In this document: piece by piece, positions 142 to 14,858 of the stretch
How positions within the stretch are numbered: position 1 is the first letter of the stretch
How the letters are laid out: the number at the start of each line of letters is the position of its first letter
Assembly: GCA_902766475.1 (NCBI GenBank)
Contig: CACXDQ010000033.1
Span: 1 to 26,022 of the forward strand
From: an uncultured Eubacteriales bacterium
GTDB lineage: Bacteria > Bacillota > Clostridia > Christensenellales > Borkfalkiaceae
Direction of reading: 5' to 3'
Length of the DNA stretch: 26,022 nucleotides
Translations under genes and position numbers: made by a program
Notes under the pieces: generated by a model
What the model saw: the letters and a program-made list of their open reading frames with translations, nothing else
Told to the model about the DNA's origin: nothing
Database searches by the model: none

Positions 142-169
142 TTGACAAACAAAAAAATATGCGTATAAT
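142..169 (+). promoter_or_regulatory. sigmaA promoter of the iron-uptake operon
   Basis: TTGACA (142-147), 16 nt, TATAAT (164-169). Confidence 0.75.
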
Positions 170-351: not shown

Positions 352-1722
352 ATGAACGTTAAAAAGAGCGTTATATTGAAGGTTTTTTCGGTGATAGCCG
401 CCGCACTCATTCTGTTTATGTGGTTTACGGCGACGCCGAAAACGGAAGCGTTCGCCGCCGATACGTATTATAAGACGTACAGAAAGTGGAAGGCGACGAA
501 GGCGGAAGATTACGTCGTGAATTACAACGACGTTGCCGAGGAGATAGGCAAGCTTTTAGACGGCGGGCTTGAAATTTACGAGAACGCTACCGAGAAAGAA
601 GATTATGCCGAAGCTTACGATTGTTTTTCAAAGGCATACGGAAGCTGGTATGAAACTTCGGGTTTCGAGAAAAAGACCTTGGGGCTTATATCGAGTTCGA
701 GAGTTACCGTCGTTGAATTGCAGTTCGCCAACGTAAAGAACGTGGCGAGCGCAGAGAGCAAGGACAACGTTTTTGAGCTTAAAGGCGAGATAGAAACGTT
801 GAAAACGTATCTCAAAGAGGACGGCGAAAAATTGAGCCCCAAAGACGGCGGCGGCTCGCTCGGTTGGGCGACGTTCGTGGGCTGTTTCACGATAATGCTG
901 AGAGAGGGCTTAGAGGCAATACTGATCATTGCGGCGATGGTTGCTTACCTCATTAAATCGGGAAATAAGTCAAAGGCGAAAGCCATCTATATCGGCGCAG
1001 GTGCGGCGATAGCGGCGAGCGTTTTAACGGCGTTCATTATAGGTTTCGTCCTTAAAAGCGTCGAGGGAATAGCTTATGCGCAAGAGATTATAGAGGGCGT
1101 TACGGCACTGATAGCCGTCGCCGTACTCATTTACGTTTCAAACTGGATGATATCCAAAGCCGAGGGCGAGGCGTGGAACAAATACCTCACGGGCAAGGTT
1201 TCCTCGTCCGTTTCGAACGGAAAGACGATAGCGCTCGGGTTTACGGCGTTTCTCGCCGTGTACAGAGAGGGTGCGGAAGTAATTCTCTTCTATCAGCCGT
1301 TCGTGTCCTCGTCGGAGAGCTTATTCCCCGTAATAGGCGGGCTTTTGGCAGGTCTGTTGGTCGTTGCGGCGGTATTCGTACTCATCAGAGTATTCGGTAT
1401 AAAGCTTCCGCTTAAACCTTTCTTTATGATAACGAGCGGGTTTATGGCGTTGATGTCGATAGCCTTCCTCGGCTCGGGCATAAAGGAGCTTATCGAAGGG
1501 CAAGTTATCACGGCGGGCACTATAAAGGGGCTTGGCTGGATGGAAAACGACGTGTTCGCATTCTTCGGTATATATCCCGTCCGGGCGACGCTCATTCCTC
1601 AGCTTGTACTGCTGGTTATCACCGTCGTTACGTTTATACTTCATATAAGGCACAATAAAAAACTGAGGCTAAAAGCAGAACAAGCCGAACAGGCTGAAAA
1701 TGCCGAACACATTACAAGGTGA
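352..1722 (+). CDS. FTR1-family iron permease with N-terminal extracytoplasmic domain
   Basis: Two REXXE motifs (LREGLE, YREGAE), multiple TM helices, and an N-terminal signal/anchor plus soluble domain. Confidence 0.92.
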   Translation: MNVKKSVILKVFSVIAAALILFMWFTATPKTEAFAADTYYKTYRKWKATKAEDYVVNYNDVAEEIGKLLDGGLEIYENATEKEDYAEAYDCFSKAYGSWYETSGFEKKTLGLISSSRVTVVELQFANVKNVASAESKDNVFELKGEIETLKTYLKEDGEKLSPKDGGGSLGWATFVGCFTIMLREGLEAILIIAAMVAYLIKSGNKSKAKAIYIGAGAAIAASVLTAFIIGFVLKSVEGIAYAQEIIEGVTALIAVAVLIYVSNWMISKAEGEAWNKYLTGKVSSSVSNGKTIALGFTAFLAVYREGAEVILFYQPFVSSSESLFPVIGGLLAGLLVVAAVFVLIRVFGIKLPLKPFFMITSGFMALMSIAFLGSGIKELIEGQVITAGTIKGLGWMENDVFAFFGIYPVRATLIPQLVLLVITVVTFILHIRHNKKLRLKAEQAEQAENAEHITR

Positions 1723-1812
1723 ATAAACTTGTCGAAGCTAAAGGCGAAATTAACGCCCACCGTAAAAAGACAAGATAAATTCTTATAAAAAAATAAAAAG
1801 GAGTCATGTAAC

Positions 1813-2412
1813 ATGAAAAGCAAATTTTTGAAATTACTTGCAAGCTTTATGCTTATTTCCGTCTTTGCATTTGCAATGGTAGCGTGCGACGACGCAGCTA
1901 CAAGCGAAAAGAAAGCTGACGAAGAGCCGGGTGAAGAAGAGGATCTCGGTTTCTCCGAAGTCGAGATATTCGCCGGTGAAAAGTGGGCTGAGGGCTACCT
2001 CGCCATGAACGGCGTTTACTTCCAGGCCGTAACGATGAACGGCGGAACGAGCAAAGAGGACGCTGACTGCCACCTCGAACTCGACGTTTCGGCTATGAAG
2101 GGCAACAAATTCGGCTTCGGCGAAGGCGACTGGGTACCCTATCTTACCGTAAACTATGAAGTTACCAAAGACGGCGAAACAATTTCTTCGGGAACGTTCA
2201 TGCCGATGGCTGCTTCCGACGGTCCTCACTACGGCGCAAACATAAAGATGGCAGGCAACGGCGATTACACCGTTAAGTTTACCGTTTCCTATCCCGGAAC
2301 GGATACTTACCTCATCCACACCGATGAAACCGGCCCCGGAGCGGTTTATCCCACCGCTTCCTACACCTTTGAAAAGACTTGGAACTACATTTTCGGATCT
2401 TGGGAAGAATAA
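1813..2412 (+). CDS. P19/Tp34-type iron (Cu/Fe)-binding lipoprotein
   Basis: Lipobox-like MVAC. Motifs VYFQAVTM, HLELD, MPMAASDGPHYGANIKM and HTDETG carry the His/Met metal ligands typical of P19. Confidence 0.9.
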   Translation: MKSKFLKLLASFMLISVFAFAMVACDDAATSEKKADEEPGEEEDLGFSEVEIFAGEKWAEGYLAMNGVYFQAVTMNGGTSKEDADCHLELDVSAMKGNKFGFGEGDWVPYLTVNYEVTKDGETISSGTFMPMAASDGPHYGANIKMAGNGDYTVKFTVSYPGTDTYLIHTDETGPGAVYPTASYTFEKTWNYIFGSWEE

Positions 2413-2467
2413 TTCGATAATTTGAAAATGCGTATTTGTTGGCTTTACGGGACAATATGATTTTCAT

Positions 2468-2503
2468 TTGCAAAACCGACGGGATAGCCCGTCGGTTTTG
2501 CAA
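2468..2503. terminator. Perfect 16-bp hairpin after the P19 gene (terminator or mRNA stabiliser)
   Basis: TTGCAAAACCGACGGG-atag-CCCGTCGGTTTTGCAA, with no clear U-tract. Confidence 0.6.
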
Positions 2504-2628
2504 GTGTTATGGAAAAAGTATTTTTATTAAAAAAATATACTTATACGTTGTCTTATTCCGCTTTAAAATACTATATATGAAATAATAAAAGCTTAAAAAC
2601 GGCTTTTAATACAATAAAGGAAAATCAA

Positions 2629-4197
2629 ATGCTCACATATCTAATAAGCGTTACGGACAGATTGCTCATTCTATCGATACTTACTGGCGTGGCTATCTCG
2701 TTTGCGGGTGCGTTTTATCTTGAAAGGGGAAAGCTTATCGTCAAAATAGGTCTTGTGGCGGGGCTTTTAGCCGCAATTGTCCGTGCGATAATAACTAACA
2801 GCGTAAGAATAAAGGCGTCGTGGACGTACAGTTCCGTCTATTACGGAATAGTTATCGGTCTGTTTATCGTCGCCGCAATTCTCGCAATACTTTCGGCGTT
2901 GCCACTCATAAAAAAGAGGGCAAAGCTCAAAACTGCGTTCGATATAGCTATCCCGTCGGTCATTGCGGCGGTATTGCTTCTTCTCGCATTCATCTTTTTG
3001 CCGACGGTCTACGCCTATCCCTTCAAATTCGACGCCGGCGAATCGGTCTTATCTACCGACTTTTTATTCCGCTTGGCGGGCTGGGCGCTCGGCATAATCG
3101 TCTGCGTGTGCGCAGGCGTCGCTTCGTATAAACTTTCGGAGCAGGCGGCGGCAAAGGGCTTGAAAGGAATGGTTGCGGTTATATTTACGGGCGTTTCCGT
3201 AATAGAGCTTATATACGTCCTCGCAAGGCAGATGACGCTTTTGGCGCCGAGGAGAATCGTTAAAAGTCAGTTCTTATTCAACTTTGCTTCTGGTAGCGGT
3301 AATCACGAATATCTCTATACATATTTTGCGCTCGGTCTGCTCGCCGTTTTTGCGATAATTCTCATCGTAAAGGGAGTTACGCAGAACGAGCCGTATAAAA
3401 ACCCCGCCGAAAGGAGAAAGATAAGGGCTTCATGGCGAAACGCATACAGACAGGTTGCCGTACTCACGGTTTGCGCCGTCGTCGGCGTGCTTTGTCTGAC
3501 GTGGTTTGTCGCTCTCAATACGACCGTCATCGCCGAAGTTCCCGTCGAGGAATGCGAAGTTATAAGCGCAGTTTTCGGCGGCGACAGATTTATGTCTTTC
3601 GAGGTTTCTTCCGAGGAGGATATTTCTTCGGCTACAATGGTTACCGTCAATGGTAAAAACTGGAAGGGCGTTACCACGAAAAGCGGCGAAAACAAATATA
3701 TTTTAAACACTTTCGTCGGAAATACCGAGCTTGACGTTTACGATATGGTCTGGTATAGCGGAAGCGCCGAAATGTTTTCCGCATCGTATAAAAAAGCGGC
3801 GGAAGAGGGCGAAACTTCCGTTAAACTTATAAAGACTTACAGCGAGAAAGAAGATTGTCTGTACGTTCCGATAGATATTGTGAGCGACGGGCACCTTCAC
3901 CGCTTCGGCTACACCACCGAAAGGGGCTTTAAAACGAGGTTTATAGTTATCAGAAAACCCAATTCGAGCCTTTACGGAGTGGGGCTTGACGCTTGCGATA
4001 TTTGCGGCGAAGCGGGATACTATGAGAGAAACGATCAGATAGTTTGTAAAAAATGCGACGTCGTTATGAACGTCAACACGATAGGCTTTAAAGGCGGCTG
4101 CAACCCGATAGTTATCGACTATACCGTCGATTACGAAAACGGTTACGTCATTGTTCCGACGGCGGCGCTAATACTAAACGAAGAAGAATTCAAGTGA
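2629..4197 (+). CDS. Polytopic membrane protein with C-terminal DUF2318-type Cys-rich domain
   Basis: About 8 TM segments. The C-terminus has DGHLHRF, DACDICG, CKKC and GGCNPI, and the gene sits in its usual position in P19 clusters. Confidence 0.85.
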   Translation: MLTYLISVTDRLLILSILTGVAISFAGAFYLERGKLIVKIGLVAGLLAAIVRAIITNSVRIKASWTYSSVYYGIVIGLFIVAAILAILSALPLIKKRAKLKTAFDIAIPSVIAAVLLLLAFIFLPTVYAYPFKFDAGESVLSTDFLFRLAGWALGIIVCVCAGVASYKLSEQAAAKGLKGMVAVIFTGVSVIELIYVLARQMTLLAPRRIVKSQFLFNFASGSGNHEYLYTYFALGLLAVFAIILIVKGVTQNEPYKNPAERRKIRASWRNAYRQVAVLTVCAVVGVLCLTWFVALNTTVIAEVPVEECEVISAVFGGDRFMSFEVSSEEDISSATMVTVNGKNWKGVTTKSGENKYILNTFVGNTELDVYDMVWYSGSAEMFSASYKKAAEEGETSVKLIKTYSEKEDCLYVPIDIVSDGHLHRFGYTTERGFKTRFIVIRKPNSSLYGVGLDACDICGEAGYYERNDQIVCKKCDVVMNVNTIGFKGGCNPIVIDYTVDYENGYVIVPTAALILNEEEFK

Positions 4198-4207
4198 GGT
4201 GGCGGAA

Positions 4208-5518
4208 ATGTTTTTTTTCAGAATGATCAAAGGCGCATACATCCGCCAATGGAAAAAGATGCTTATAATTGCCGTTACGATAGCGCTCGGCGCTTCGATT
4301 GCGACGGCGATGTTAAACGTAATGCTCGACGTGGGCGACAAGATAAATCAGGAACTTAAAGCTTACGGCGCAAACATAACCGTCGTGTCAAAATCGGCTT
4401 CCGTCTTAAACAACCTCTACGAGATAGAGGACGACGGCAGTGTCGAGGTCGACGAGATGATAAAGGAAAACGACGTCGGCAAGTTAAAGACGATATTCTG
4501 GGCGTTCAACATAACCGACTTTGCACCCACGGTCGAAACGAGCGTTACCGTCGGCGGAGAAAAGCACAAGGTCGTCGGGACGTGGTTCAATCACACGTTA
4601 AAGCTCGTAACGGGCGAAACAGTGATAACGGGCGTTACCAATCTCCGCTCGTGGTGGGAAATAAAGAGCGGCAGATGGATAGACGAGCAAGCTTCGGAAA
4701 ACCTCGACGTCGCAATGATCGGAAAATCTTTTGCGGAAAAGCAAAATCTCAAAGTCGGAGATAAAATAGACGTTTCGGGTAGAGTTGTAGACGGCGAAAC
4801 GAAAACGGTAAGCTTAAAGGTCGTGGGTATATTCGAGGCGGGCGACGAGTCCGACGACGGGATATATGCGCCGCTTGAAAAAGTTCAATACCTTTCCGGC
4901 ACGGAAAATTACGTTCAGAAAATAGAGGTCAGCGCACTTACAACGCCCGACAACGAACTCGCTTTGAAGGCGGCGAAAGACGTAAATTCGCTGTCCATTG
5001 CGGAATACGAACTTTGGTATTGTACGGCTTACGTCAGCTCCATTTGTTACCAGATACAAGAGGCTATCCCGTATACGGTGGCGTCCGCTTTCCGTCAGAT
5101 AGCCGAATCTGAGGGCGATATACTCGACAAAACGCAGCTTTTGATGACGCTTATCACGATAATGAGTATGATAGGCGCAGCCCTCGGTATTTCCAACCTC
5201 GTAACTTCGAGCGTTATGGAAAGGAGCGGCGAGATAGGGCTTATGAAGGCTGTCGGGGCTAAAAATTCACAGATAATAATTTTGATTTTGACGGAGATAT
5301 TCATCACGGCGATAATAGGTGCGGTCGGCGGCTATTTCATGGGCTTCGGCTTTGCGCAGATAATAGGACACACGGTATTCGGCTCTTCTATAGAGATGAA
5401 CGGAATGGTTGCGTTTATCGTTGCGGTGATAATACTCGCCGTCACGCTCGTCGGAAGTTTCCCGGCGATAAGGCTAATGCTGAGGCTTCGCCCGTCCGAA
5501 GTTTTGCACGGCAGATAA
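4208..5518 (+). CDS. ABC transporter permease, MacB/FtsX-like (P19-cluster type)
   Basis: N-terminal TM, large extracytoplasmic domain, ERxxEIGLMKAVGA motif and 3 C-terminal TMs. Start placed at ATG 4208 (SD GAGGT 4196-4200); the track starts at GTG 4199. Confidence 0.88.
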   Translation: MFFFRMIKGAYIRQWKKMLIIAVTIALGASIATAMLNVMLDVGDKINQELKAYGANITVVSKSASVLNNLYEIEDDGSVEVDEMIKENDVGKLKTIFWAFNITDFAPTVETSVTVGGEKHKVVGTWFNHTLKLVTGETVITGVTNLRSWWEIKSGRWIDEQASENLDVAMIGKSFAEKQNLKVGDKIDVSGRVVDGETKTVSLKVVGIFEAGDESDDGIYAPLEKVQYLSGTENYVQKIEVSALTTPDNELALKAAKDVNSLSIAEYELWYCTAYVSSICYQIQEAIPYTVASAFRQIAESEGDILDKTQLLMTLITIMSMIGAALGISNLVTSSVMERSGEIGLMKAVGAKNSQIIILILTEIFITAIIGAVGGYFMGFGFAQIIGHTVFGSSIEMNGMVAFIVAVIILAVTLVGSFPAIRLMLRLRPSEVLHGR

Positions 5519-5531
5519 GAGGTTGATCGTC

Positions 5532-6689
5532 ATGAACAATAAACGCACGAAAATGTTTCTTAAAATGATAACGTCGTCTTTGATAAGAAGGCGTTCGAGA
5601 ATGATCATCGCACTTCTTGCGATAGTTGTCGGTGCGACGATACTTTCGGGGCTTGTAACCATTTATTACGACGTTCCGAGGCAGATGGGCGCACAGTTTC
5701 GTAATTACGGCGCAAACATGATATTCACGGCGTCGGGCGAAGAGCCGCTCACGCAGGAAAACGTAGAAAAGGGAATTTCGTATATTCCCAAAAACGAACT
5801 TGTCGGCTACACGCCGTACAGATATGAAACGGTGAGAATAAACGAACAGCCCGTATTGGTCGCCGGAACGGATATTAAGGGCACGGAAGCCACAAGCCCG
5901 TACTGGTACATAAACGGCAACAGACCGACGGCAAACGGTCAGGTACTCGTCGGTAAAAACGTCGCAAATCTATTGGGCGTAAAGGTCGGCTCTACGGTGG
6001 AGATACACTATTACGACAACGAAGCCGAGAAGAGCGACGACGATATAGATCTCGGCACGACGATGTTCGTTACGGGCATACTCGAAACGGGAAGCTCCGA
6101 AGAAGATTACCTCTATATGTCGCTCGCCGATCTTGCGGAAATTACCGAAAAAGTCGGCAGCTACAACGTCGTCGAGATAAGCGTTTCGACTTCGGGAGCA
6201 AATCTCGAAAAGTATATCGAGCGCATAGATTCAAACGTAGAGGGCGTAAAGGCAAGGCTTATAAAGAGGGTCACGTCGTCCGAAGGCGCTGTGCTTACCA
6301 AACTTCAATCTCTCGTATTTATCGTTACGGCGGTAATTTTAGTTCTTACGATGATATGCGTTGCGACGACGATGACGGCTGTCATTGCGGAGAGAAGAAA
6401 GGAGATAGGGCTCAGAAAGGCGCTCGGCGCTTCAAATTCGAGCATCGTGGGCGAATTTATGGGCGAGGGCTTGCTTCTCGGCGGTATAGGCGGAATACTA
6501 GGCTCGGTACTTGGCTTTGTGTTTGCGGAGATAGTCAGCGTAAACGTATTTTCAAGCTCGATAACGTTCAGACCGCTGATTCTCGTGATAAGCGTAGTCG
6601 TTTCCGTCATCGTTACGGGTGCGGCGTGCCTGATTCCTATCAAGAGCGCAACGGAGATAGATCCGGCACTCATATTAAAGGGCGAATAA
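5532..6689 (+). CDS. ABC transporter permease, MacB/FtsX-like
   Basis: ERRKEIGLRKALGA motif and MacB topology. Start placed at ATG 5532 (SD AAGAGG); the track starts at TTG 5523. Confidence 0.88.
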   Translation: MNNKRTKMFLKMITSSLIRRRSRMIIALLAIVVGATILSGLVTIYYDVPRQMGAQFRNYGANMIFTASGEEPLTQENVEKGISYIPKNELVGYTPYRYETVRINEQPVLVAGTDIKGTEATSPYWYINGNRPTANGQVLVGKNVANLLGVKVGSTVEIHYYDNEAEKSDDDIDLGTTMFVTGILETGSSEEDYLYMSLADLAEITEKVGSYNVVEISVSTSGANLEKYIERIDSNVEGVKARLIKRVTSSEGAVLTKLQSLVFIVTAVILVLTMICVATTMTAVIAERRKEIGLRKALGASNSSIVGEFMGEGLLLGGIGGILGSVLGFVFAEIVSVNVFSSSITFRPLILVISVVVSVIVTGAACLIPIKSATEIDPALILKGE

Positions 6690-6702
6690 GGAGATAAATA
6701 AA

Positions 6703-7377
6703 ATGAGTTTACTTGAAATAAGAAACGTATCTAAGATATACGGCGAATTAAAGGCACTCGACAATATTAATTTGAAGGTCGAAGATGGCGAATGGCTCGC
6801 CATAATGGGTCCGTCGGGCTCGGGTAAAAGCACGATGATGAACATTATCGGCTGTATGGATAAGCCGTCTATGGGCGAAGTGCTTTTGGACGGAAAGGAC
6901 ATTTCCAAAGAGAGCGAGAAAAATCTCACGTCGATAAGAAGGGATAAGATAGGTCTTATCTTCCAGCAATTCCACCTCGTAAGCTATATGAGCGCAGTCG
7001 AAAACGTAATGCTCTCGCAGTATTATCACAGTATGCCCGACGAGAAAGAGGCGCTCGAAGCGCTCGAAAGGGTAGGGCTTAAAGAGAGGGCGAAACACCT
7101 TCCCAGCCAGCTTTCGGGCGGCGAACAGCAGAGGGTTTGCGTGGCGAGGGCGCTTATAAACCACCCCGAAATAATTCTTGCCGACGAGCCGACGGGAAAC
7201 CTTGACGAGGCGAACGAAAATATCGTAATAGATATCTTCCGCCAACTTCACAAAGAGGGCACGACGCTCATCGTCGTAACGCACGATCCCGAAGTGGGCG
7301 AGGTTGCGGAGAGAATGATAAGGCTCGAACACGGCAGAATAATAAGCGACGTTAAAAACGAAAATTTCAGAGGCTAA
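6703..7377 (+). CDS. ABC transporter ATP-binding protein (LolD/MacB-like)
   Basis: Walker A GPSGSGKS, signature LSGGEQQ, Walker B ILADEPTG. Confidence 0.95.
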
Positions 7378-7378
7378 C

Positions 7379-7822
7379 ATGAAGAGGATATTTGTTTTTA
7401 TTTTTGCAATAGTTCTCTCGCTTTTGGCACTTGTATCATGCGGAGGGGGAGAAGAGTATAACGACGGCGTTTACGAGGGCAAAAGCTCGGTATATTCGGG
7501 CGACGAGGACGACGGCGGCGCAGGTTACGGCGTGGTAACGATAACTATAAAGGACAACCTTATCACCGCTTGCACGTTCAACACGTTCGAGCCGGACGGA
7601 ACGCAGAAAGACGAAAATTACGGCAAGCAGAACGGTGAGATAGCCAATCGTGATTACTACAACAGAGCGCAAAGAGCTTTGAGGGCGAACGCCACTTACG
7701 AAAAGGCGATAGTCGCCTACGGCACTCTCGACAAGGTCGACGCAGTTTCGGGCGCAACGATTTCATTCGGACAATTTAAAGAAGCCGTCGAAAATGCCTT
7801 GCAAAAAGCAATCAAAAAGTAG
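7379..7822 (+). CDS. FMN-binding (flavinylated) lipoprotein
   Basis: Lipobox LVSC and flavinylation motif VDAVSGAT (7739-7759) in an FMN_bind-like context. Confidence 0.88.
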   Translation: MKRIFVFIFAIVLSLLALVSCGGGEEYNDGVYEGKSSVYSGDEDDGGAGYGVVTITIKDNLITACTFNTFEPDGTQKDENYGKQNGEIANRDYYNRAQRALRANATYEKAIVAYGTLDKVDAVSGATISFGQFKEAVENALQKAIKK

Positions 7823-7828
7823 TATAAT
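7799..7828 (+). promoter_or_regulatory. Possible internal promoter giving a leaderless mRNA for the gene at 7835
   Basis: TTGCAA (7799-7804), 18 nt, TATAAT (7823-7828). ATG lies 6 nt downstream with no good SD. Confidence 0.45.
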
Positions 7829-7834
7829 GGTAAT

Positions 7835-8329
7835 ATGAAGAATATTATCGCACATTTCTTAATAATATTTGTTTCGCTGCTCGTCATTTTAGGCGTGCCG
7901 ACCGTGCTGTATAAGGACTTTGTGTTCGGCGGCTCCGGCATTGACGCCCTATCCGGTGCGACGATAGAACTGCCCGACGCCCCGTCGGGCAATTATGTCA
8001 TACAGATGAACGTGAAAGACAAGTATTTTACTTCCGCTAAGGAATGGGATAACTTTTTCAACGAGAGAGATTACGACGTGCTTATGGAGGACGTGAATTG
8101 CCTTGTGGCGACAGGCGACGAAAGCGCATATAAGCTTGCGGAAAGATATATGGCAAGGCTTGCGGTAAACCAGATGAAAATAAGGCGTGAAAACGTTATG
8201 TTAACCGTTTCAAAGGCTGAAAATCGACTTATAGACATACTTATTATGTCCGAAGAGTATGCAGAGGCATATAAATTACAGCTTGAAACGGAGGGCGTAA
8301 AAACCATAAAGGTGGAGGGCAAGGCATGA
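7835..8329 (+). CDS. Uncharacterised membrane-anchored protein with flavinylation motif
   Basis: N-terminal hydrophobic helix followed by IDALSGAT (7943-7963). The stop overlaps the next start (ATGA). Confidence 0.7.
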   Translation: MKNIIAHFLIIFVSLLVILGVPTVLYKDFVFGGSGIDALSGATIELPDAPSGNYVIQMNVKDKYFTSAKEWDNFFNERDYDVLMEDVNCLVATGDESAYKLAERYMARLAVNQMKIRRENVMLTVSKAENRLIDILIMSEEYAEAYKLQLETEGVKTIKVEGKA

Positions 8330-8859
8330 TAAGAAAGATAAACGCAATACTTACGTCGCTTATTTTATTGGGCGTAATAATCCACGGCGTGTTTGCCTCG
8401 TTCGGGCTTTTCGGAGCTTCGGCAAACAGTATGAAACACCTTGCGAGGGTAATTTTCGTCCTTGTGGCTTTACATACTGCGATCGGGATATGGACGACTG
8501 TCGAAACTCTGATAGCTTTGAAGAGAGCCGGCGTTCACTATTTTAAAGGCAACCTGATGTTTTGGGCGAGAAGGATAAGCGGAATAGCAATAATGATACT
8601 TCTCGTCTTTCACCTCGTCATTTTCGACGTGGGCGAAGGAAGACTGAGCGTGTTCGACGGCGTGGCGCTTACTACGCAGATACTTCTCGTCGTATCTATC
8701 GTTTTACACGTCGTGATAAACGCCAAACCTATGCTCATATCCTTCGGTATAGGTCGATTAAAGGCACGTGTTGCGGATATTCTGTTTATTTTGTCGGTGC
8801 TTTTGGTCGTGTTTATAGCGGCATTTATAGTATATTATATAAGGTGGCACATCGCCTGA
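8326..8859 (+). CDS. SdhC/FrdC-like five-helix cytochrome b membrane anchor
   Basis: Five TM helices with His20, His50, His96 and His128 in helices 1-4. RRISGIAIMILLVFH resembles Bacillus-type cytochrome b558, and the gene directly precedes the flavoprotein and Fe-S genes. Confidence 0.7.
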   Translation: MIRKINAILTSLILLGVIIHGVFASFGLFGASANSMKHLARVIFVLVALHTAIGIWTTVETLIALKRAGVHYFKGNLMFWARRISGIAIMILLVFHLVIFDVGEGRLSVFDGVALTTQILLVVSIVLHVVINAKPMLISFGIGRLKARVADILFILSVLLVVFIAAFIVYYIRWHIA

Positions 8860-8871
8860 CGGGAGGAATTT

Positions 8872-10443
8872 ATGATAAACGTTATAGGCGCAGGTTTAAG
8901 CGGCATTTCGGCGGCGATAACCATAGCTAAATGCGGTAAAAAATGCAATCTCTTTTCCGTTCAACCGTCGGAGAGGGCGCAGTCCGTCCTTGCGGAAGGG
9001 GGGATAAACGCCGCACTCGACAATATGGGCGAGGGCGATACGGTAGAGGAACATTTCCTCGACACTATGAAAGGCGGAGTGTTTTTAGAGGACGAACAGA
9101 CTATAAAGGACTTTACAGCCGCCGCACCCGATATTGTAATGAAGTTGAAGGCGCTCGGCGTGCCGTTTCACTTAAACGGCGACAAGATAGCGCAGAGAAA
9201 TTTCGGCGGACAGAAGAAAAAGCGCACGGCGTTTTCAAAGAGCAGTACGGGCAAAGTTATTATGACCGCCCTTATCGACGAGGCGAGGAAATACGAAGAT
9301 AAAGGGTTTATAGCGAGGTTTCCTCATCATGAAGTCATAGATCTTTCAATATCGGGCGGCGCTTTTTGCGGCGTAACGGTAAGGGATATATACACGGGCA
9401 GGACGGCTGAATTTTTCGGCGCAACAATTCTTTGCGTCGGCGGTATGAACGGCATTTTCCCCGAAGTTACAACGGGTACGACGCAGAATAACGGCAACGT
9501 TCAGTCGATCGCCTTTTCAAAGGGCGTCGAGTTTTCCGATCTCGAATTTATTCAGTATCACCCGACGACGATAGCCGTTGCTGACAAGAGAATGCTTGTT
9601 TCCGAGGCGGCGAGGGGCGAGGGCGGCAGACTGTTTACCGTTAAAAACGGCAAGCCGTGGTATTTTATGGAAGAAAAATATCCCGTTTTAAAAAACCTTA
9701 TGCCCCGTGACGTCGTGTCGAGAGAATGTTATCTCGCAATTCACGACGGGCAAACGGACGGCAAGGTATATCTCGATTTAACGGGGCTTCCCGAAGAAGT
9801 CAAGAGGGATAAACTTTCCGATCTCTTCGAGGAAATAACCGCCTATAAGTCGATTGATCCGTCTGTAACGCCCGTTCCCGTCGAGCCGGGGATACACTAT
9901 TTTATGGGCGGGATAAGCGTCGATAAAGGGCATAGGACGAACGTAAAAGGTCTGTATGCCGCAGGCGAGTGCGCCTCGATATATCACGGTGCGAACAGGC
10001 TCGGCGGAAATTCCATGCTCGGCGCAATTTACGGCGGAACGGTTGCGGCGAAAACGGCGGTAGACGAAAATTACGAGTGCGCCGCCACGGATAACGGCTC
10101 GCATGAACTGCCGTTCGGATATGCGGAGAGAGCGGACGGCTCGCCGTCGTTCAATAAAAAACTAAGGGATATTCTCTTTGACGGGCTTGGAATAATAAGG
10201 GACGAAAAGGGGCTTATCTCTTCGCTTGAAAAGGTGGAAAAACTTATTTCCGAAACAAAGAACGAAACCGAGATGGCGAGGGCGACGCTCGGCAAGGCGA
10301 TGATACTCTCCGCAATAGAGAGGAAGGAGAGCCGTGGGGCGCATTACCGTGCGGACTTCCCCGAGCAAAGTGAAGAATACAAGGCTAAGTCGACGGCGGT
10401 ATTTTCGGGCGGCGAAATAGTCATAAAATTCAAAAAGGCGTGA
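8872..10443 (+). CDS. sdhA: Succinate dehydrogenase/fumarate reductase-like flavoprotein (atypical, lacks the covalent-FAD His)
   Basis: GAGLSG FAD motif, AEGGINA, RNFGG, QYHPT, SEAARGEGG, RDVVSR, HYFMGG, HGANRLGGNS and ESRGAHYRADFP. Confidence 0.85.
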   Translation: MINVIGAGLSGISAAITIAKCGKKCNLFSVQPSERAQSVLAEGGINAALDNMGEGDTVEEHFLDTMKGGVFLEDEQTIKDFTAAAPDIVMKLKALGVPFHLNGDKIAQRNFGGQKKKRTAFSKSSTGKVIMTALIDEARKYEDKGFIARFPHHEVIDLSISGGAFCGVTVRDIYTGRTAEFFGATILCVGGMNGIFPEVTTGTTQNNGNVQSIAFSKGVEFSDLEFIQYHPTTIAVADKRMLVSEAARGEGGRLFTVKNGKPWYFMEEKYPVLKNLMPRDVVSRECYLAIHDGQTDGKVYLDLTGLPEEVKRDKLSDLFEEITAYKSIDPSVTPVPVEPGIHYFMGGISVDKGHRTNVKGLYAAGECASIYHGANRLGGNSMLGAIYGGTVAAKTAVDENYECAATDNGSHELPFGYAERADGSPSFNKKLRDILFDGLGIIRDEKGLISSLEKVEKLISETKNETEMARATLGKAMILSAIERKESRGAHYRADFPEQSEEYKAKSTAVFSGGEIVIKFKKA

Positions 10444-10457
10444 GCGGAGGTCGGTAA

Positions 10458-11162
10458 ATGGCTATCTTTATAGAAATTTTAAGGACGAAAAACAGCGATA
10501 AACAATACTTTGAGACCTTTTTATACGAGCCTTTCGGCGATGGCGACACGATAGCTACGGCGCTTAAAAAGCTCAACGAGAGAGAGGAGCTTAAAGACGT
10601 TGACGGAAAAGCCGCCGAGAAGATCGAATGGGAATGCAGCTGCCTTCAAAAGAAGTGCGGCTCGTGCGCAATGGTCATAAACGGCAGACCGAGGCTTGCT
10701 TGCGACGCTAAAATAAGCGAGTTTAAAGGAAAAGTCAGAGTAGAGCCGCTCAAAAAATTTCCCGTTGTGTGCGATCTTACGGTCGATAGGTCGATACTTT
10801 TTGCAAATCTCAAAGAGATGAAGAGCTGGGTGCCCGACGAGAAAGAGGCGATTATAAACGGAAAGGAAATTCAATACGAGTCTTCAAGATGCCTTCAATG
10901 CGGTTGCTGTCTTGAAATTTGCCCCAACTTCTATTCGGGCGGCAAGTTCTTCGGCATGGCGGCGGGTGCGCTCACTTCAAGGCTTATATCGGAGCTTCCC
11001 AAAGGAGAGAGGGACGAGATAGCAAAGGCTTATAAAAAGCATTTTTACGCAGGTTGCGGCAAGTCGCTCGCTTGCAAGGACGTCTGTCCCGCCGGAATCG
11101 ACACCGAAAAACTTCTCGTAAACTCAAACGCCGTGGCAATATGGAAAAGAAAATCAAAATAA
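10458..11162 (+). CDS. sdhB: Succinate dehydrogenase/fumarate reductase-like iron-sulfur subunit
   Basis: [2Fe-2S] motif CLQKKCGSC...LAC, [4Fe-4S] motif CLQCGCCLEICP and [3Fe-4S] motif CGKSLACKDVCP. Confidence 0.88.
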   Translation: MAIFIEILRTKNSDKQYFETFLYEPFGDGDTIATALKKLNEREELKDVDGKAAEKIEWECSCLQKKCGSCAMVINGRPRLACDAKISEFKGKVRVEPLKKFPVVCDLTVDRSILFANLKEMKSWVPDEKEAIINGKEIQYESSRCLQCGCCLEICPNFYSGGKFFGMAAGALTSRLISELPKGERDEIAKAYKKHFYAGCGKSLACKDVCPAGIDTEKLLVNSNAVAIWKRKSK

Positions 11163-11176
11163 CCCCGTCCGTCCGC

Positions 11177-11205
11177 TTGACAATGCGGGCGGAAAATTAT
11201 ATAAT
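11177..11205 (+). promoter_or_regulatory. Consensus sigmaA promoter of the DUF4418/ABC module
   Basis: TTGACA (11177-11182), 17 nt, TATAAT (11200-11205). Confidence 0.85.
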
Positions 11206-11207
11206 AA

Positions 11208-11225
11208 AGTTAGTCAAAACTAACT
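11208..11225. promoter_or_regulatory. Operator palindrome AGTTAG-N6-CTAACT over the predicted transcription start
   Basis: Perfect 6-bp arms, and the same motif as the array at 180-327. Confidence 0.7.
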
Positions 11226-11238
11226 ATGAGGTGATTAT

Positions 11239-11664
11239 ATGTTGGTAAATAAGAGAAACGTAAAATTCGGCATAACGGACGTCGTCGTTTTCGTTATTTG
11301 CGCCGTGTTTACGGTCGGCATTTTTACTTGGTTTGCGCCGTGTGCGCCGATGGCGGAAGGAATGTATATGGTCTGTCATTGGGCGGGCAACGCCATCGCT
11401 TCGCTCGCAATACTTTTAACCGTCATCTCCGCCGTGCATATCTTATTGTCGGACGGGAAAATGAAGCTCGGCGTGGATATTTGCATTTTGTCGATTGCGA
11501 TAACGGCGGCGATAATACCGGGCAACGTAATTTCGCTATGCGCACATTCTTCGGCGCATTGCATGGAGCTTACAAAGCCGTTTACGATAGTTTTTTCCGT
11601 TTTGACGGCGCTTGCTGCGGCGTTTGATTTTTGTTACTACTTTATTAGAGAAAGAAAGAAATGA
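11239..11664 (+). CDS. DUF4418-like membrane protein with Cys/Met/His motifs
   Basis: About 4 TM segments with CAPMAEGMYMVCHW and LCAHSSAHCM. SD GAGGTG, and the stop overlaps the permease start. Confidence 0.75.
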   Translation: MLVNKRNVKFGITDVVVFVICAVFTVGIFTWFAPCAPMAEGMYMVCHWAGNAIASLAILLTVISAVHILLSDGKMKLGVDICILSIAITAAIIPGNVISLCAHSSAHCMELTKPFTIVFSVLTALAAAFDFCYYFIRERKK

Positions 11665-12866
11665 ATTTTTTTGCGGAGCTTTCGTTAAAAAACTTAAAGA
11701 GAAAACCGCTGAGGACTTTTGCGCTTTCCGCACTTGTCGCCCTCTTGTCTTTTGTCCTTTTCGGCGGCACTATTTTGGTAACGAGCCTTAAAAACGGGCT
11801 TGACAGTTACAGCGCAAGGCTTGGTGCGGACGTCGTGGTAGTTCCATATGCCGCTCGGTCGGAAGGACAGTTCGAGGACGTGCTTTTACAAGGTATCCCC
11901 GGCAATTTTTATATGAGTTCGTCTAAGATCGACAAGATAGCTAATGTCGAGGGCGTAGATAAGCTTTCTCCTCAATTTTTCCTCGCCTCGACGAGCGCAA
12001 GCTGTTGTTCGGCATCGGTACAGATAATAGGTTTCGATCCCGATACCGACTTTTCCGTTCTGCCGTGGGTAAACAGGAAGTACGGCGGAAGTATAGGGGA
12101 CGGGGATATAGTCGTCGGCTCGGAAATATCCGTAACGACGAGCGGAAAACTTAAATTTTACAACGTCGAATGTAACGTCGTCGCCACGCTTGAAAGGACG
12201 GGGACGGGGCTTGATACCGCCGTTTACGCCAATATGAATACCATTAAGCAGATGGCGAAAAACGCAAAGGAACTCGGCTTTACGTTTTTGGACGGGGTGA
12301 ACGTCGATAAGTCCGTTTCGGCGGTAATGATAAAGGTTAAAAGCGGTTACGACGCCGAGAGCGTTGCGGCGCAGATAAACATGGCGGTAACGGGCATACG
12401 CTCGGGCAGTTCGACGAGCTACGTCAGCGGCGTTGCCGGAGGGCTCGATAACGTTTCGGGCATAATAGGCGCTCTATCTGTAATGATATGGGTGCTTTCG
12501 GTGGTTATCCTCGGCGTGTCGCTCTTTGCGATATGCAACGAACGCGGTAAAGAATTTGCCGTGCTTCGTGCGATGGGTGCGTCTAAAAAGTCGCTCTATA
12601 AGTTGATTATCGTTGAAATTTCAATATTGTCGGCGGTCGGAGCGTCGGTCGGCGTTATACTTTCCGGGGCGTTTATATTGCCGTTCGGCGCAATTATAAG
12701 GAGAAGTTTGCAGATGCCATATTTAGTTCCCGAATGGTGGCAGTTAGCGCTCTTTGCGGTAGCGGCAGTTGTCATTTCGGTGCTGACGGGCGTTATAGCC
12801 TCATTGTTTTCTGTCAAAAAATTAAGCAAAAACGACGCAGGGCTTATGCTCAGGGAGGACGCTTGA
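11661..12866 (+). CDS. ABC transporter permease, MacB/FtsX-like, with ASCCS motif
   Basis: MacB topology, ERGKEFAVLRAMGA, and vicinal Cys in the extracytoplasmic domain. Confidence 0.88.
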   Translation: MNFFAELSLKNLKRKPLRTFALSALVALLSFVLFGGTILVTSLKNGLDSYSARLGADVVVVPYAARSEGQFEDVLLQGIPGNFYMSSSKIDKIANVEGVDKLSPQFFLASTSASCCSASVQIIGFDPDTDFSVLPWVNRKYGGSIGDGDIVVGSEISVTTSGKLKFYNVECNVVATLERTGTGLDTAVYANMNTIKQMAKNAKELGFTFLDGVNVDKSVSAVMIKVKSGYDAESVAAQINMAVTGIRSGSSTSYVSGVAGGLDNVSGIIGALSVMIWVLSVVILGVSLFAICNERGKEFAVLRAMGASKKSLYKLIIVEISILSAVGASVGVILSGAFILPFGAIIRRSLQMPYLVPEWWQLALFAVAAVVISVLTGVIASLFSVKKLSKNDAGLMLREDA

Positions 12867-13550
12867 ATGGTTGTAAAAGCTGAAAAGATAAGCAGAACTT
12901 TTTTGAGAAATAAGGCGGGCACTAACTTTTTCTATGCCGTTCAAAGTACCGATTTTCAAGCGGAGAGCGGCGAGTTTATAGAGATCGTCGGAAAGTCGGG
13001 CAGCGGAAAGAGTACGTTTTTAAATATGCTCGCAGGGCTTTTGACGCCGACTGAGGGCAAGGTATATATAGGAAATACCGACCTTTACCTTTCCGAGGAC
13101 GGAGAGAGGTCGCAATTCAGAAATGAAAATATAGGCGTTATTCCGCAAGGGCAGACGGGGCTTTTAAGCCTTACCGTCCTTGAAAACGTATTGCTTCCGT
13201 CGAAGATATACGGCAAATGCGACGGCGAAAAGATCGTAAGAGCCGAAGAGCTTTTAAAAGCCGTCGGGCTGTACGATTTAAAGGACGTCTACCCGAACGA
13301 GCTTTCGGGCGGCGAGATGAGGAGAATGGCGATTGCGAGGGCGCTTATAATGCAGCCTTCCGTCATTTTAGCCGACGAGCCGACGGGCGATCTCGACGAG
13401 GAAAATACGGCGCTTGTAATGAGTTTGCTAAAAAATGCGGCGAAGGGCGGCGCAACCGTCATAATGGTAACGCACGATAAAGACGCATTGTCGTATGCCG
13501 ATAAAGTTTACTCGATGAGTGGCGGCGTGTTGTCCGAAAAGACGGCGTAA
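12867..13550 (+). CDS. ABC transporter ATP-binding protein
   Basis: GKSGSGKS, LSGGEMRR, LADEPTG. Confidence 0.95.
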   Translation: MVVKAEKISRTFLRNKAGTNFFYAVQSTDFQAESGEFIEIVGKSGSGKSTFLNMLAGLLTPTEGKVYIGNTDLYLSEDGERSQFRNENIGVIPQGQTGLLSLTVLENVLLPSKIYGKCDGEKIVRAEELLKAVGLYDLKDVYPNELSGGEMRRMAIARALIMQPSVILADEPTGDLDEENTALVMSLLKNAAKGGATVIMVTHDKDALSYADKVYSMSGGVLSEKTA

Positions 13551-13639: not shown

Positions 13640-13669
13640 TTGCACATCGTATTGAAATTATGTTATAAT
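13640..13669 (+). promoter_or_regulatory. Extended -10 promoter
   Basis: TTGCAC (13640-13645), 18 nt, TATAAT (13664-13669), preceded by TG. Confidence 0.55.
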
Positions 13670-13685
13670 GAAAAAAAGGTGAGTT

Positions 13686-13770
13686 ATGATTTTAAAAGAC
13701 GAGATAGCTTGTCGCAGAGAGAATTTGCCGAAAGATTAGGGGTAACTCACCAATCGGTGTGCAAACGTGA
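13686..13770 (+). pseudogene. XRE-type helix-turn-helix remnant
   Basis: ATG 13686 with SD gives MILKDEI. A different frame reads LSQREFAERLGVTHQSVCKRE, a typical XRE HTH segment, so the gene is frameshifted and truncated. Confidence 0.55.
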
Positions 13771-13777
13771 GGGAAAT

Positions 13778-14098
13778 ATGAGCATAACAATAAATATATA
13801 TTACAGTGGGAAGGGCGCAAGACAATTTGCCGAAGAGATGATAAAAAGCGGCGTGGCGGATATGGTGCGAGCCGAAGAAGGTAACGAGAGGTACGATTAT
13901 TTCTTGCCGCTCGGCGGCGAAGACGCCGTGCTTTTGATAGACAGCTGGGCTTCACAAGCCGCACTCGACAAGCATCATAATTCGCCTTTAATGGGCGAGA
14001 TCGCAAGGCTCAGGGAAAAATACGACGTTCATATGAGGGTAGAGAGATTTGTAAGCGAAGTCGGCAATAAAGACGACGAGAAATATATAAGGAGATAA
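13778..14098 (+). CDS. Antibiotic biosynthesis monooxygenase (ABM)/putative quinol monooxygenase family protein
   Basis: VRAEEGNERYDYF, LLIDSW and ALDKHHNSPLM motifs. Start at ATG 13778 (SD GAGGG); the track's upstream extension is the HTH remnant. Confidence 0.8.
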   Translation: MSITINIYYSGKGARQFAEEMIKSGVADMVRAEEGNERYDYFLPLGGEDAVLLIDSWASQAALDKHHNSPLMGEIARLREKYDVHMRVERFVSEVGNKDDEKYIRR

Positions 14099-14102
14099 TA
14101 AA

Positions 14103-14255
14103 ATGAGTGAAAAGATAGTGCAGACGGCAGGGAGAGAACAGCTCGGAGATTTTGCGCCGACGTTCGCCCGTTTAAACGACGACGTGCTGTTCGAAGAGGT
14201 TGCGGACGAACTCGGGCTAAACATGATAAGGTTTTGGGAAAAGGAGATGAAATGA
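14103..14255 (+). pseudogene. Truncated carboxymuconolactone decarboxylase-family gene (50 codons)
   Basis: MSEKIVQTAGREQLGDFAPTFARLNDDVLF matches the typical N-terminus of this family. The sequence then diverges and stops at 14255. Confidence 0.65.
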
Positions 14256-14794
14256 TTATGTTTAAGATAAGGACGAGGGCTTTGATTTTTGCGCTCGCTT
14301 GCTTGTTACTGTCGTTATTTCTTTTTTCATGCGGAGGAGGAAGAGTTTCGGAAAGCTCCGTCATAGATGATAAGACAGGCGGCACGGCGCAGACGGACGA
14401 GGGCGTAAGCGATATTGAAAGAGAGGAAGAAGAAATGAAAATGTACGTTTATATCAACGGAAACAAGCTCGAAGCAGAACTTGTAAACAACTCTTCGGCG
14501 GCGGCTTTATATGAGCTTTTGAAAAAGGGCGATATCGTATATACCGCCGACGATTACGGCAATTTCGAGAAAGTGGGCGGTATAGGGCATACTCTGCCGC
14601 AGAACAACGAGAGGATAGATACCGTTTCGGGCGACGTAATACTCTATCAAGGTACGAGCGTATGCCTTTATTACGGCAAAAACAGTTGGAATTTTACGAG
14701 GCTCGGGCGAATAAACGGCTATACGGATAGCGAACTAAGAAGTCTTTTAGGCGCAGGGAAAGGCGAAACGGAAGTTAAACTCAGTTTAAAATGA
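14252..14794 (+). CDS. Cyclophilin-like fold lipoprotein
   Basis: Lipobox LFSC with DYGNFEK, GDVILYQG and WNFTRLGRI motifs. Start at 14252 or 14258 (SD AAGGAG). Confidence 0.75.
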   Translation: MIMFKIRTRALIFALACLLLSLFLFSCGGGRVSESSVIDDKTGGTAQTDEGVSDIEREEEEMKMYVYINGNKLEAELVNNSSAAALYELLKKGDIVYTADDYGNFEKVGGIGHTLPQNNERIDTVSGDVILYQGTSVCLYYGKNSWNFTRLGRINGYTDSELRSLLGAGKGETEVKLSLK

Positions 14795-14816: not shown

Positions 14817-14824
14817 AAAAAGCG

Positions 14825-14858
14825 AGGCGGAAACTTAAAGAGTTTCCGCCTTACTTTT
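14825..14858. terminator. Bidirectional terminator between convergent genes
   Basis: AGGCGGAAACT-taaag-AGTTTCCGCCT, with an A-run before and a T-rich run after. Confidence 0.8.

Follow-up and report, generated by a model that had tools for sequence, protein, structure and literature searches.

A Fet/P19 iron-importer operon extended by predicted flavin carriers and a complex II-like module recurs in gut and rumen anaerobes and suggests where the redox electrons of the importer may go

Iron importers of the FTR1/P19 (FetMP) type are widespread, pathogens included, and none of their accessory genes is dispensable for growth when iron is scarce. The source or sink of their redox power, and whether uptake involves an oxidation or a reduction of the iron, have been open questions since 2010. 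Oxidase-permease uptake of iron is known from Fet3-Ftr1 of yeast and from bacterial FtrABCD, in which the polyferredoxin FtrD has been proposed as electron acceptor. In FetMP-FetABCDEF of Campylobacter jejuni (cj1658-1665) and its Gram-positive homologues, the genes follow in the order FTR1, P19, DUF2318 protein, FtsX, FtsX and ATP-binding cassette (ABC) ATPase (PMC6083913, PMC10783030, PMC8238504). The CxxC Cys motif of the DUF2318 protein has been described for C. jejuni FetA (1651) (PMC6083913). Proteobacteria have the thioredoxin-like FetE/FetF (PMC6083913, PMC10783030), the Gram-positive P19 homologues have a seventh gene whose product binds flavin mononucleotide (FMN), and Liu et al. describe Fet/P19 clusters of seven or eight genes. 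Here we analyse a cluster of this kind from an uncultured Eubacteriales bacterium of the Borkfalkiaceae (GCA_902766475.1, contig CACXDQ010000033.1, positions 1-26,022, forward strand; this whole stretch of 26,022 nucleotides is called the window), in which the Fet/P19 genes continue into genes for a second predicted flavin carrier and a complex II-like module. We read the extended operon as an iron importer with its own transmembrane electron wire, which would lead from a redox step outside the cell to cytoplasmic fumarate, a reading to which we give an even chance.

The first-pass annotation of the window had reported eleven co-oriented genes between 352 and 11162, with gaps of at most 14 nucleotides from 2629 onwards. 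All eleven open reading frames (ORFs) are indeed present at these positions on the + strand (Table 1), and the gaps measure 1, 4, 13, 1, 12, -4, 12 and 14 nucleotides, the negative one being an ATGA overlap between the second predicted flavin carrier (7835-8329) and the membrane anchor (8326-8859). No convincing terminator was found in 352-11162, and the first strong one lies at 14824-14852. The cluster itself runs past 11162, where it had been taken to end, into a conserved further part made of DUF4418, FtsX and ABC ATPase genes (11239-13550). Functional statements throughout are drawn from sequence, predicted structure and gene neighbourhood.

As in the described systems, FTR1 and P19 genes stand side by side, followed by a FetA-like protein that joins several transmembrane helices to a DUF2318 domain with its Cys cluster at the C-terminus, and then, in conserved order, by genes for two FtsX permeases, an ABC ATPase and, in seventh place, an FMN-binding protein. 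Judged by these sequence features, genes one to seven make up the Gram-positive form of the known Fet/P19 system. What distinguishes the window from the C. jejuni and Gram-positive systems are four extra genes in the same operon (DUF6921 protein, presumed dihaem anchor, FrdA-like and FrdB-like proteins) and the additional DUF4418/FtsX/ABC companion module. Full-text literature searches returned no paper tying P19 clusters to an Sdh-like module.

Table 1. Positions of the features of the window and the evidence on which each assignment rests.
Feature	Position	Strand	Evidence
FTR1/FetM-type iron permease, signal-anchor, ~170-aa (amino acid) N-terminal extension	352-1722	+	PF03239 5e-27; TIGR00145 4e-37, under its cut-off
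P19/FetP extracytoplasmic iron(-copper) binding lipoprotein	1813-2412	+	PF10634 2e-42; N-terminal lipobox
FetA-like protein with 8 transmembrane helices, extracytoplasmic DUF2318/FtrD-like Cys-cluster domain	2629-4197	+	PF10080 9e-27; CxxC-x13-CxxC-x14-C
FetBCD-like MacB-type ABC system	4199-7377	+	Pfam
MacB_PCD+FtsX permeases, two	4199-5518, 5523-6689	+	Pfam
ABC ATPase (ABC_tran)	6703-7377	+	Pfam
FMN_bind lipoprotein, first extracytoplasmic flavin carrier (predicted)	7379-7822	+	PF04205 1e-8; lipobox LVSC; DAVSGAT (Thr127)
Membrane-anchored divergent DUF6921 protein, second flavin carrier (predicted)	7835-8329	+	DALSGAT (Thr43)
Compact 5-helix membrane anchor, presumed dihaem cytochrome b	8326-8859	+	four invariant His; fold model
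Cytoplasmic FrdA-like flavoprotein	8872-10443	+	FAD_binding_2 + Succ_DH_flav_C, 4e-75
FrdB/SdhB-like iron-sulfur subunit	10458-11162	+	Fer2_3 + Fer4_8; TIGR00384 104.5 bits vs cut-off 88
Companion module: DUF4418 Cys/His-rich protein with 4 transmembrane helices, FtsX permease, ABC ATPase	11239-13550	+	Pfam
Promoter-like site TTGACA-16-TATAAT, ahead of first operon	142-169	+	12/12 consensus match
Four GTTAG-N6-CNAAC operator-like sites in leader	181-296 (starts 181, 215, 248, 281)	+	
Second promoter-like site (11177-11205), then perfect GTTAG-N6-CTAAC palindrome (11209-11224)	11177-11224	+	12/12 consensus match (promoter-like site)

The FrdA-like flavoprotein stays below the cut-off of all 42 NCBIfam models that it matches, every curated SdhA, FrdA, NadB and TfrA model among them, the best being PRK08641 (395 bits against 855). 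In the tree, E. coli SdhA, FrdA and NadB stand with 25 other enzymes on one side, and the window falls into a 51-row clade set off by a long stem with full support, separate from ordinary respiratory Sdh/Frd; a grouping with those enzymes would, by the first-pass annotation, have counted against its reading. Its FAD_binding_2 and Succ_DH_flav_C domains and its catalytic His/Arg/His/Arg/Glu set are those of a complex II flavoprotein, and the equivalents of FrdA H233, E246, R288, H356 and R391 (start Met counted) in the dicarboxylate site are invariant. Two other positions set the clade apart. Where 26 of 28 ordinary enzymes have the His that links flavin adenine dinucleotide (FAD), the window has Gln37, and Gln is found in all 50 clade members with a residue there; the His in RSH[ST] that marks covalent 8-alpha-N3-histidyl FAD is thus missing. 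The position of FrdA Glu49/SdhA Gln50 holds Glu (AEGG in the window) in 31/31 members of the subclade containing the window, and Gln in 25/28 ordinary enzymes. The covalent link lifts the FAD potential by some 100 mV, and succinate oxidation depends on it (PMC10238741); swapping Glu49 and Gln50 improves each E. coli enzyme in the opposite direction and shifts the catalytic bias (PMC4145680). The combination of Gln at the FAD-linking position with the reductase-type Glu therefore points to the direction of fumarate reduction. The protein is cytoplasmic by its features, with a Rossmann motif from residue 4 and no signal peptide, and alignment of the FrdB-like subunit with E. coli SdhB/FrdB reveals ligand motifs for 2Fe-2S, 4Fe-4S and 3Fe-4S clusters.

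Two other identities were considered and rejected. As in Sdh/Frd, the position of NadB Glu121 (REGG), the residue that holds the substrate amino group, is occupied by Phe (RNFGG), the NadB models stay below cut-off, and SdhB-like and anchor genes are adjacent, none of which fits NadB. The thiol:fumarate reductase TfrAB is likewise excluded, since the Fe-S subunit has 234 amino acids and TfrB about 490 with extra Cys-rich (CCG) domains, an anchor gene is present, and the TfrB and TfrA models reach 102.9 bits against 385 and 314 against 718. Kinship with this enzyme was dropped because the Methanobacteriaceae relatives have a short SdhB, and at one of their loci (L035) a four-His ORF lies upstream.

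The 177-amino-acid product of 8326-8859 has no Pfam match and contains five helices, with four His residues on helices 1-4; His20, His50, His96 and His128 are invariant in an alignment of 29 homologues. Its model has a predicted local distance difference test (pLDDT) score of 92, and the top Foldseek matches are chain C of the Chloroflexus Sdh and Wolinella FrdC (probability 1.0, template modelling (TM) score 0.62). The profile of the family also matches M. smegmatis SdhC (2.7e-5). The family is small, with 508 representatives at E <=1e-3 among 1.84 billion. From the fold model and the His residues, we presume that this protein is a dihaem cytochrome b like those of type-B complex II. The likeness to type-B complex II (Wolinella FrdCAB; succinate:menaquinone reductase of Bacillus and Chloroflexus) extends to the order C-A-B, the single five-helix four-His anchor of the same fold, the three-cluster Fe-S subunit and the conserved dicarboxylate site. 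The window differs from these enzymes by the Gln in place of the covalent-FAD His, by a flavoprotein of ~520-545 amino acids, by an anchor of only 177 with its His residues on helices 1-4, by a predicted flavinylated protein in the place where quinol delivers or takes up electrons, and by the scarcity of MenA-type genes among the hosts. Indeed, no UbiA/MenA-family gene was found in the host genome of the window (1.5 Mb, 86% complete), in R. albus 8, in an Atopobiaceae metagenome-assembled genome (MAG) or in Collinsella aerofaciens; the two other hosts have one UbiA-family gene each, which leaves four of the six without, and the control search was positive in all 14 reference genomes.

The flavinylation motif D-x-x-[ST]-[GS]-A-[ST] occurs twice, as DAVSGAT in the lipoprotein, which is the sole FMN_bind protein found in the host genome, and as DALSGAT in the DUF6921-like protein. 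The latter has no Pfam match of its own, only one N-terminal transmembrane helix, and carries the motif on a tether right behind that helix. We assigned it by comparing the profile of its family with a Pfam-verified DUF6921 protein of Clostridium sp. OF03-18AA, encoded in the same slot ahead of the cytochrome gene (hhalign probability 95%, E 2e-8); Collinsella likewise has a DUF6921 protein ahead of the cytochrome gene. The motif is kept in 22 of 23 homologues. At one locus from a Sphaerochaeta MAG (L047), the DUF6921-like protein has lost it. The domain outside the membrane looks like a single lobe of a periplasmic binding protein (PBP), the best match being 3noh, a structural-genomics protein of R. 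gnavus; the Protein Atlas gave no usable match for this domain, and no searchable paper mentioning DUF6921 was found in full text. Co-folding of the DUF6921-like protein (7835-8329) with the anchor (8326-8859), part of a check proposed together with the original prediction of an electron relay, gave a complex score of 0.63 against 0.00 for the best control; scores as high as 0.63 were attained by 58 of 80 solved complexes and by 2 of 110 mismatched pairs. The predicted contacts involve cytochrome residues 30, 32, 105-109 and 173-177, and these loops and the C-terminus belong to the outside face by the positive-inside rule. The model thus lends support to the DUF6921 protein docking on the cytochrome from outside.

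ApbE is encoded in the host genome (contig C227, 6e-89) and in the five other hosts tested, and it adjoins the cluster in three lineages, namely an Atopobiaceae genome and Flexilinea (G441 and G442) and locus L013. External ApbE substrates combined with a four-His cytochrome, often linked to iron, are also typical of flavinylation-associated systems such as PepSY-like/FoxB, MsrQ-like and DUF4405 cytochromes and the flavin-based extracellular electron transfer of Listeria (PMC8238504, PMC11334425); in the window, the cytochrome has instead the anchor fold of complex II and is joined to cytoplasmic FrdAB. The partner protein differs as well: it is a DUF6921, half-PBP-like protein with the motif on an N-terminal tether, a family outside the described classes of ApbE substrates (FMN_bind, NqrB/RnfD, DUF2271, Flavodoxin_4, FMN_red). 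Huang et al. extended the range of such systems to DUF4405 cytochromes and two new classes of flavinylated protein, with no mention of P19 or of Sdh-like anchors.

To see how far the gene set extends, we kept 80 loci from a degenerate-pattern scan with the SdhA-clade alignment, one genome per species; the counts below depend on these loci, many of which come from metagenome bins, and related genomes among them are non-independent samples. By tblastn with all window proteins, the full eleven-gene order was recovered in Ruminococcus (including R. albus 8), Lachnospiraceae, Eubacterium and Oscillibacter, and also in three Atopobiaceae (Actinomycetota) and in Flexilinea (Chloroflexota), so that the set spans Bacillota, Actinomycetota and Chloroflexota. 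The DUF4418/FtsX/ABC trio is found in most syntenic loci, either downstream, upstream or between cytochrome and SdhA genes, and is therefore a constant member with a floating position. When the DUF6921-like protein replaced SdhA as the seed, look-ups again yielded this set, now as 14 genes on contigs of 177-413 kb from metagenomes.

Whether this SdhA clade co-occurs with P19/FTR1 across genomes was the survey that the first-pass annotation had called for, and its expectation was borne out: in the 31-row subclade containing the window (Shimodaira-Hasegawa-like approximate likelihood ratio test (SH-aLRT) 99), Fet/P19 genes lie directly upstream in 20 of about 25 assessable members. Five members (L011, L015, L016, L046, L047) have no Fet genes over 6.6-10 kb of upstream sequence, and the remaining rows, L014 included, lie on contigs too short to judge. 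Seen from the P19 side, in a sample of 251 genomes from the order of R. albus, P19 is present in four genomes, and in three of these the contig with P19 also has an SdhA-clade gene, 6.6-6.8 kb further downstream. Among 40 relatives of the host, of which 24 belong to its genus, none was found to have P19 or an orthologue of this SdhA; among 398 other genomes of the host class, P19 occurs in only 2, both without the module, which says little. The SdhA tree crosses taxonomy, with Flexilinea, Atopobiaceae and Sphaerochaeta nested among Bacillota. For FetA, for each of the two FtsX permeases and for the ATPase, pairwise distances correlate with the SdhA distances (Spearman 0.40-0.53, a level matched in no more than 3 of 500 permutations), about as well as those of SdhB do (0.41). 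As the set occurs in three phyla and both parts are missing from the 40 relatives, it moves as one unit, and the Sdh-like part is not a chance neighbour of the Fet genes.

Outside the subclade, divergent four-His ORFs of about 180 amino acids also precede the SdhA genes of the remaining Gln-type clades, with no flavinylated partner. On this sequence evidence, the whole Gln-type clade is an anchor-FrdA-FrdB module, of which one subclade appears to have joined the Fet cluster. In a Methanosphaera MAG (L035:3020-6005), a four-His membrane ORF of 193 amino acids is followed by Gln-type FrdA and FrdB; this is an anchor of cytochrome type in a lineage regarded as cytochrome-free, and either horizontal transfer or an error of binning could account for it. 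A sister group has a longer anchor of about 200-216 amino acids (L033:9345-9995, L034:9381-9989), with a weak DUF4405 match in L033, which may point to a connection of complex II anchors with the flavinylation-associated cytochromes of DUF4405 type. In Collinsella aerofaciens (L031:6321-12538) and Clostridium sp. OF03-18AA (L026:6365-12240), DUF6921, cytochrome and FrdAB genes lie directly behind a Cd/Zn-type (IB2) P-type ATPase, accompanied in L026 by an ArsR/SmtB regulator and in L031 by nearby serine recombinases, which flank some of the copies without P19. An anaerobic cuprous oxidase was considered for these ATPase-linked copies and dropped, since TIGR01512 is above its cut-off and the copper model below, and the regulator is of ArsR/SmtB type. 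Yet another arrangement is an operon of DUF3793, flavodoxin, cytochrome, FrdA and FrdB with no P19 and a serine recombinase after it (L011:7954-12288).

The operator-like motif has 8 sites in the host genome, 5 of them in this cluster. In the leader (215-280), a 33-bp tandem duplication doubles one of the sites, with identical copies starting at 215 and 248. Perfect palindromes are found just upstream of FTR1 in Flexilinea and at a Lachnospiraceae locus (L021 and L030), and two perfect GTTAG-N6-CTAAC copies stand ahead of the L011 flavodoxin operon. Flavodoxin is a classic iron-sparing protein, and this association hints at iron control through the motif. Downstream of the second ABC system, the window encodes an ABM-domain (antibiotic biosynthesis monooxygenase-like) protein with an N-terminal helix-turn-helix-like stretch and a cyclophilin-like lipoprotein (13640-14794), neither of them conserved at related loci.

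By topology, P19, the DUF2318 domain, both flavin motifs and the outer haem are on the outside, and FrdA and FrdB on the inside. The wiring proposed by the first-pass annotation, from outside FMN through haem b, Fe-S and FAD to fumarate, fits this arrangement, the predicted docking and the missing MenA-type gene of most hosts, which we count as partial support. Gene content, linkage and co-transfer, the signature residues, the anchor fold and the predicted contact are direct results on which we build the proposal; haem and flavin loading, each electron-transfer step, their direction and iron control are what we infer from them. Electrons would leave at the outside uptake step, either by Fe(II) oxidation at P19/FTR1 or by oxidation of the FetA Cys cluster, and would pass from the iron or Cys site to the FMN of the lipoprotein and on to that of the DUF6921 protein. 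From there they could enter the outer and then the inner haem of a quinone-independent cytochrome b, run through the 3Fe-4S, 4Fe-4S and 2Fe-2S clusters to a non-covalent FAD in the FrdA-like subunit, and reduce fumarate to succinate in the cytoplasm. Fumarate is at hand in any cell running purine or arginine synthesis, and the host genome has two Lyase_1 family genes. Uptake of the ferroxidase-permease type would thereby be workable without O2, the Sdh-like module presumably replacing the O2-dependent oxidase. Such a system would share with oxidase-permease uptake the FTR1-family permease, an extracytoplasmic iron redox step and a dedicated electron route; unlike Fet3-Ftr1 and FtrABCD, it involves neither O2 nor a multicopper oxidase or cupredoxin, and we propose cytoplasmic fumarate, reached via flavins, haems and Fe-S, as the acceptor. 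We favour inward flow because of the two FrdA-type markers, the precedent of the FTR1 oxidase-permeases and the oxidase-like FetE analogue, the analogous accessory protein of C. jejuni, FetE, resembling thiol-disulfide oxidases (PMC10783030).

Several observations weigh against this reading. An inward flow of Fe(II) electrons, by way of flavins of low potential and in opposition to the membrane potential, would be energetically awkward. Ferrochelatase was not found in any of the six hosts (the siroheme route was not searched), so haem would need scavenging if the anchor is a cytochrome. The only other perfect genomic copy of the operator-like palindrome (C90:3101) precedes an operon of an ABC ATPase and a 768-amino-acid fused FtsX-type permease (C90:73-3116), and one regulator seems, from its predicted sites, to control three FtsX/ABC operons. 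No window sequence was found in metatranscriptome runs; two sequencing runs of unspecified kind contain about half of the sampled words, giving low-depth contigs of a strain about 98% identical, one of them spanning 6666-9729. Furthermore, the model in the literature for these FMN proteins, and for the FMN-binding or thioredoxin partner of P19 clusters, is a reducing one, with transfer from flavin to Fe(III) (PMC6083913, PMC8238504). The same parts could accordingly work in reverse as an assimilatory ferric reductase, in which succinate would be oxidised at the FAD and electrons would travel outward via Fe-S clusters, the two haems and the flavoproteins to turn Fe(III) into Fe(II) for P19/FTR1. 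Linkage and wiring fit this scheme equally well, flavin-to-Fe(III) transfer is thermodynamically easy, outward electrons are favoured by the membrane potential, as in the type-B bioenergetics of the Bacillus succinate:menaquinone reductase, and the iron flux is small, so that a slow dehydrogenase would suffice and even a poor succinate dehydrogenase could be the electron source. The invariant Gln and the reductase-type Glu oppose succinate oxidation, however (PMC10238741, PMC4145680), and in the reduced rumen and gut Fe(II) should already predominate. We consider the reverse direction unlikely, about half as probable as the favoured one.

Copies of the module without P19 (Collinsella; L011, L016, L026, L031, L046, L047) also speak against a strict tie to iron and indicate a portable unit, not an exclusive part of the iron system; Cd and Zn moreover undergo no change of redox state, which makes the ATPase-linked copies difficult for an iron-redox function. 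Taken further, cytochrome and FrdAB could be a self-standing fumarate reductase, serving anaerobic respiration or anabolic succinate with scavenged menaquinone or another membrane donor, that has its mobile islands in common with metal-transport genes but no electron path in common with the importer. Besides these copies, among them the two with serine recombinases in L026 and L031, the lack of a flavinylated partner in the wider Gln-type clade, the UbiA-family gene of two hosts and a Na+:dicarboxylate symporter, found with an Asp/Glu racemase ahead of the module in L047:2207-8887, would fit such a bystander. It is nevertheless improbable in our judgement, lower still than reverse flow, given that within the subclade the Fet genes run straight on into the module, with no gap above 14 nucleotides and no terminator between them, that the order is kept across three phyla with both parts gained or missing together, that the cytochrome has the protein with the flavinylation motif as a translationally coupled neighbour and predicted binding partner, and that most hosts lack MenA. 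The electrons might also serve thiol/disulfide or cofactor chemistry at the Cys cluster of FetA DUF2318 or at DUF4418, for example keeping these oxidised or loading a metal cofactor, and leaving the redox state of the carried iron unchanged. This would agree with the thioredoxin-like FetE/FetF that Proteobacteria have in the same operon slot (PMC6083913, PMC10783030) and with the constant presence of Cys-rich DUF2318 and DUF4418 proteins in the set. Haems and Fe-S clusters, being one-electron carriers, are untypical partners for dithiols, though, and we regard this idea, more a variant of the inward wire than a separate system, as very improbable.

The window variant has a candidate electron path written into a single operon, and the recurrence of the package in many gut and rumen anaerobes suggests where the redox electrons of the importer go. 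With two independent fumarate-reductase sequence markers at the cytoplasmic end, the direction becomes testable as a dependence on fumarate or on succinate. The broader picture, to which we give somewhat less than an even chance, is that of a complex II relative repurposed as a quinone-free wire from flavinylated surface proteins to fumarate, an O2-independent equivalent of the ferroxidase-permease for strict anaerobes. If this is true, complex II anchors would have a new partner, a tethered flavoprotein in the place of the quinone; DUF6921 would be a candidate family for a new class of ApbE substrate; and haem-b cytochromes would operate in Ruminococcus, Lachnospiraceae and Atopobiaceae unable to make haem or quinone. 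We suggest that the gene set as a whole may represent a horizontally mobile iron-acquisition island common to rumen and gut anaerobes of three phyla.

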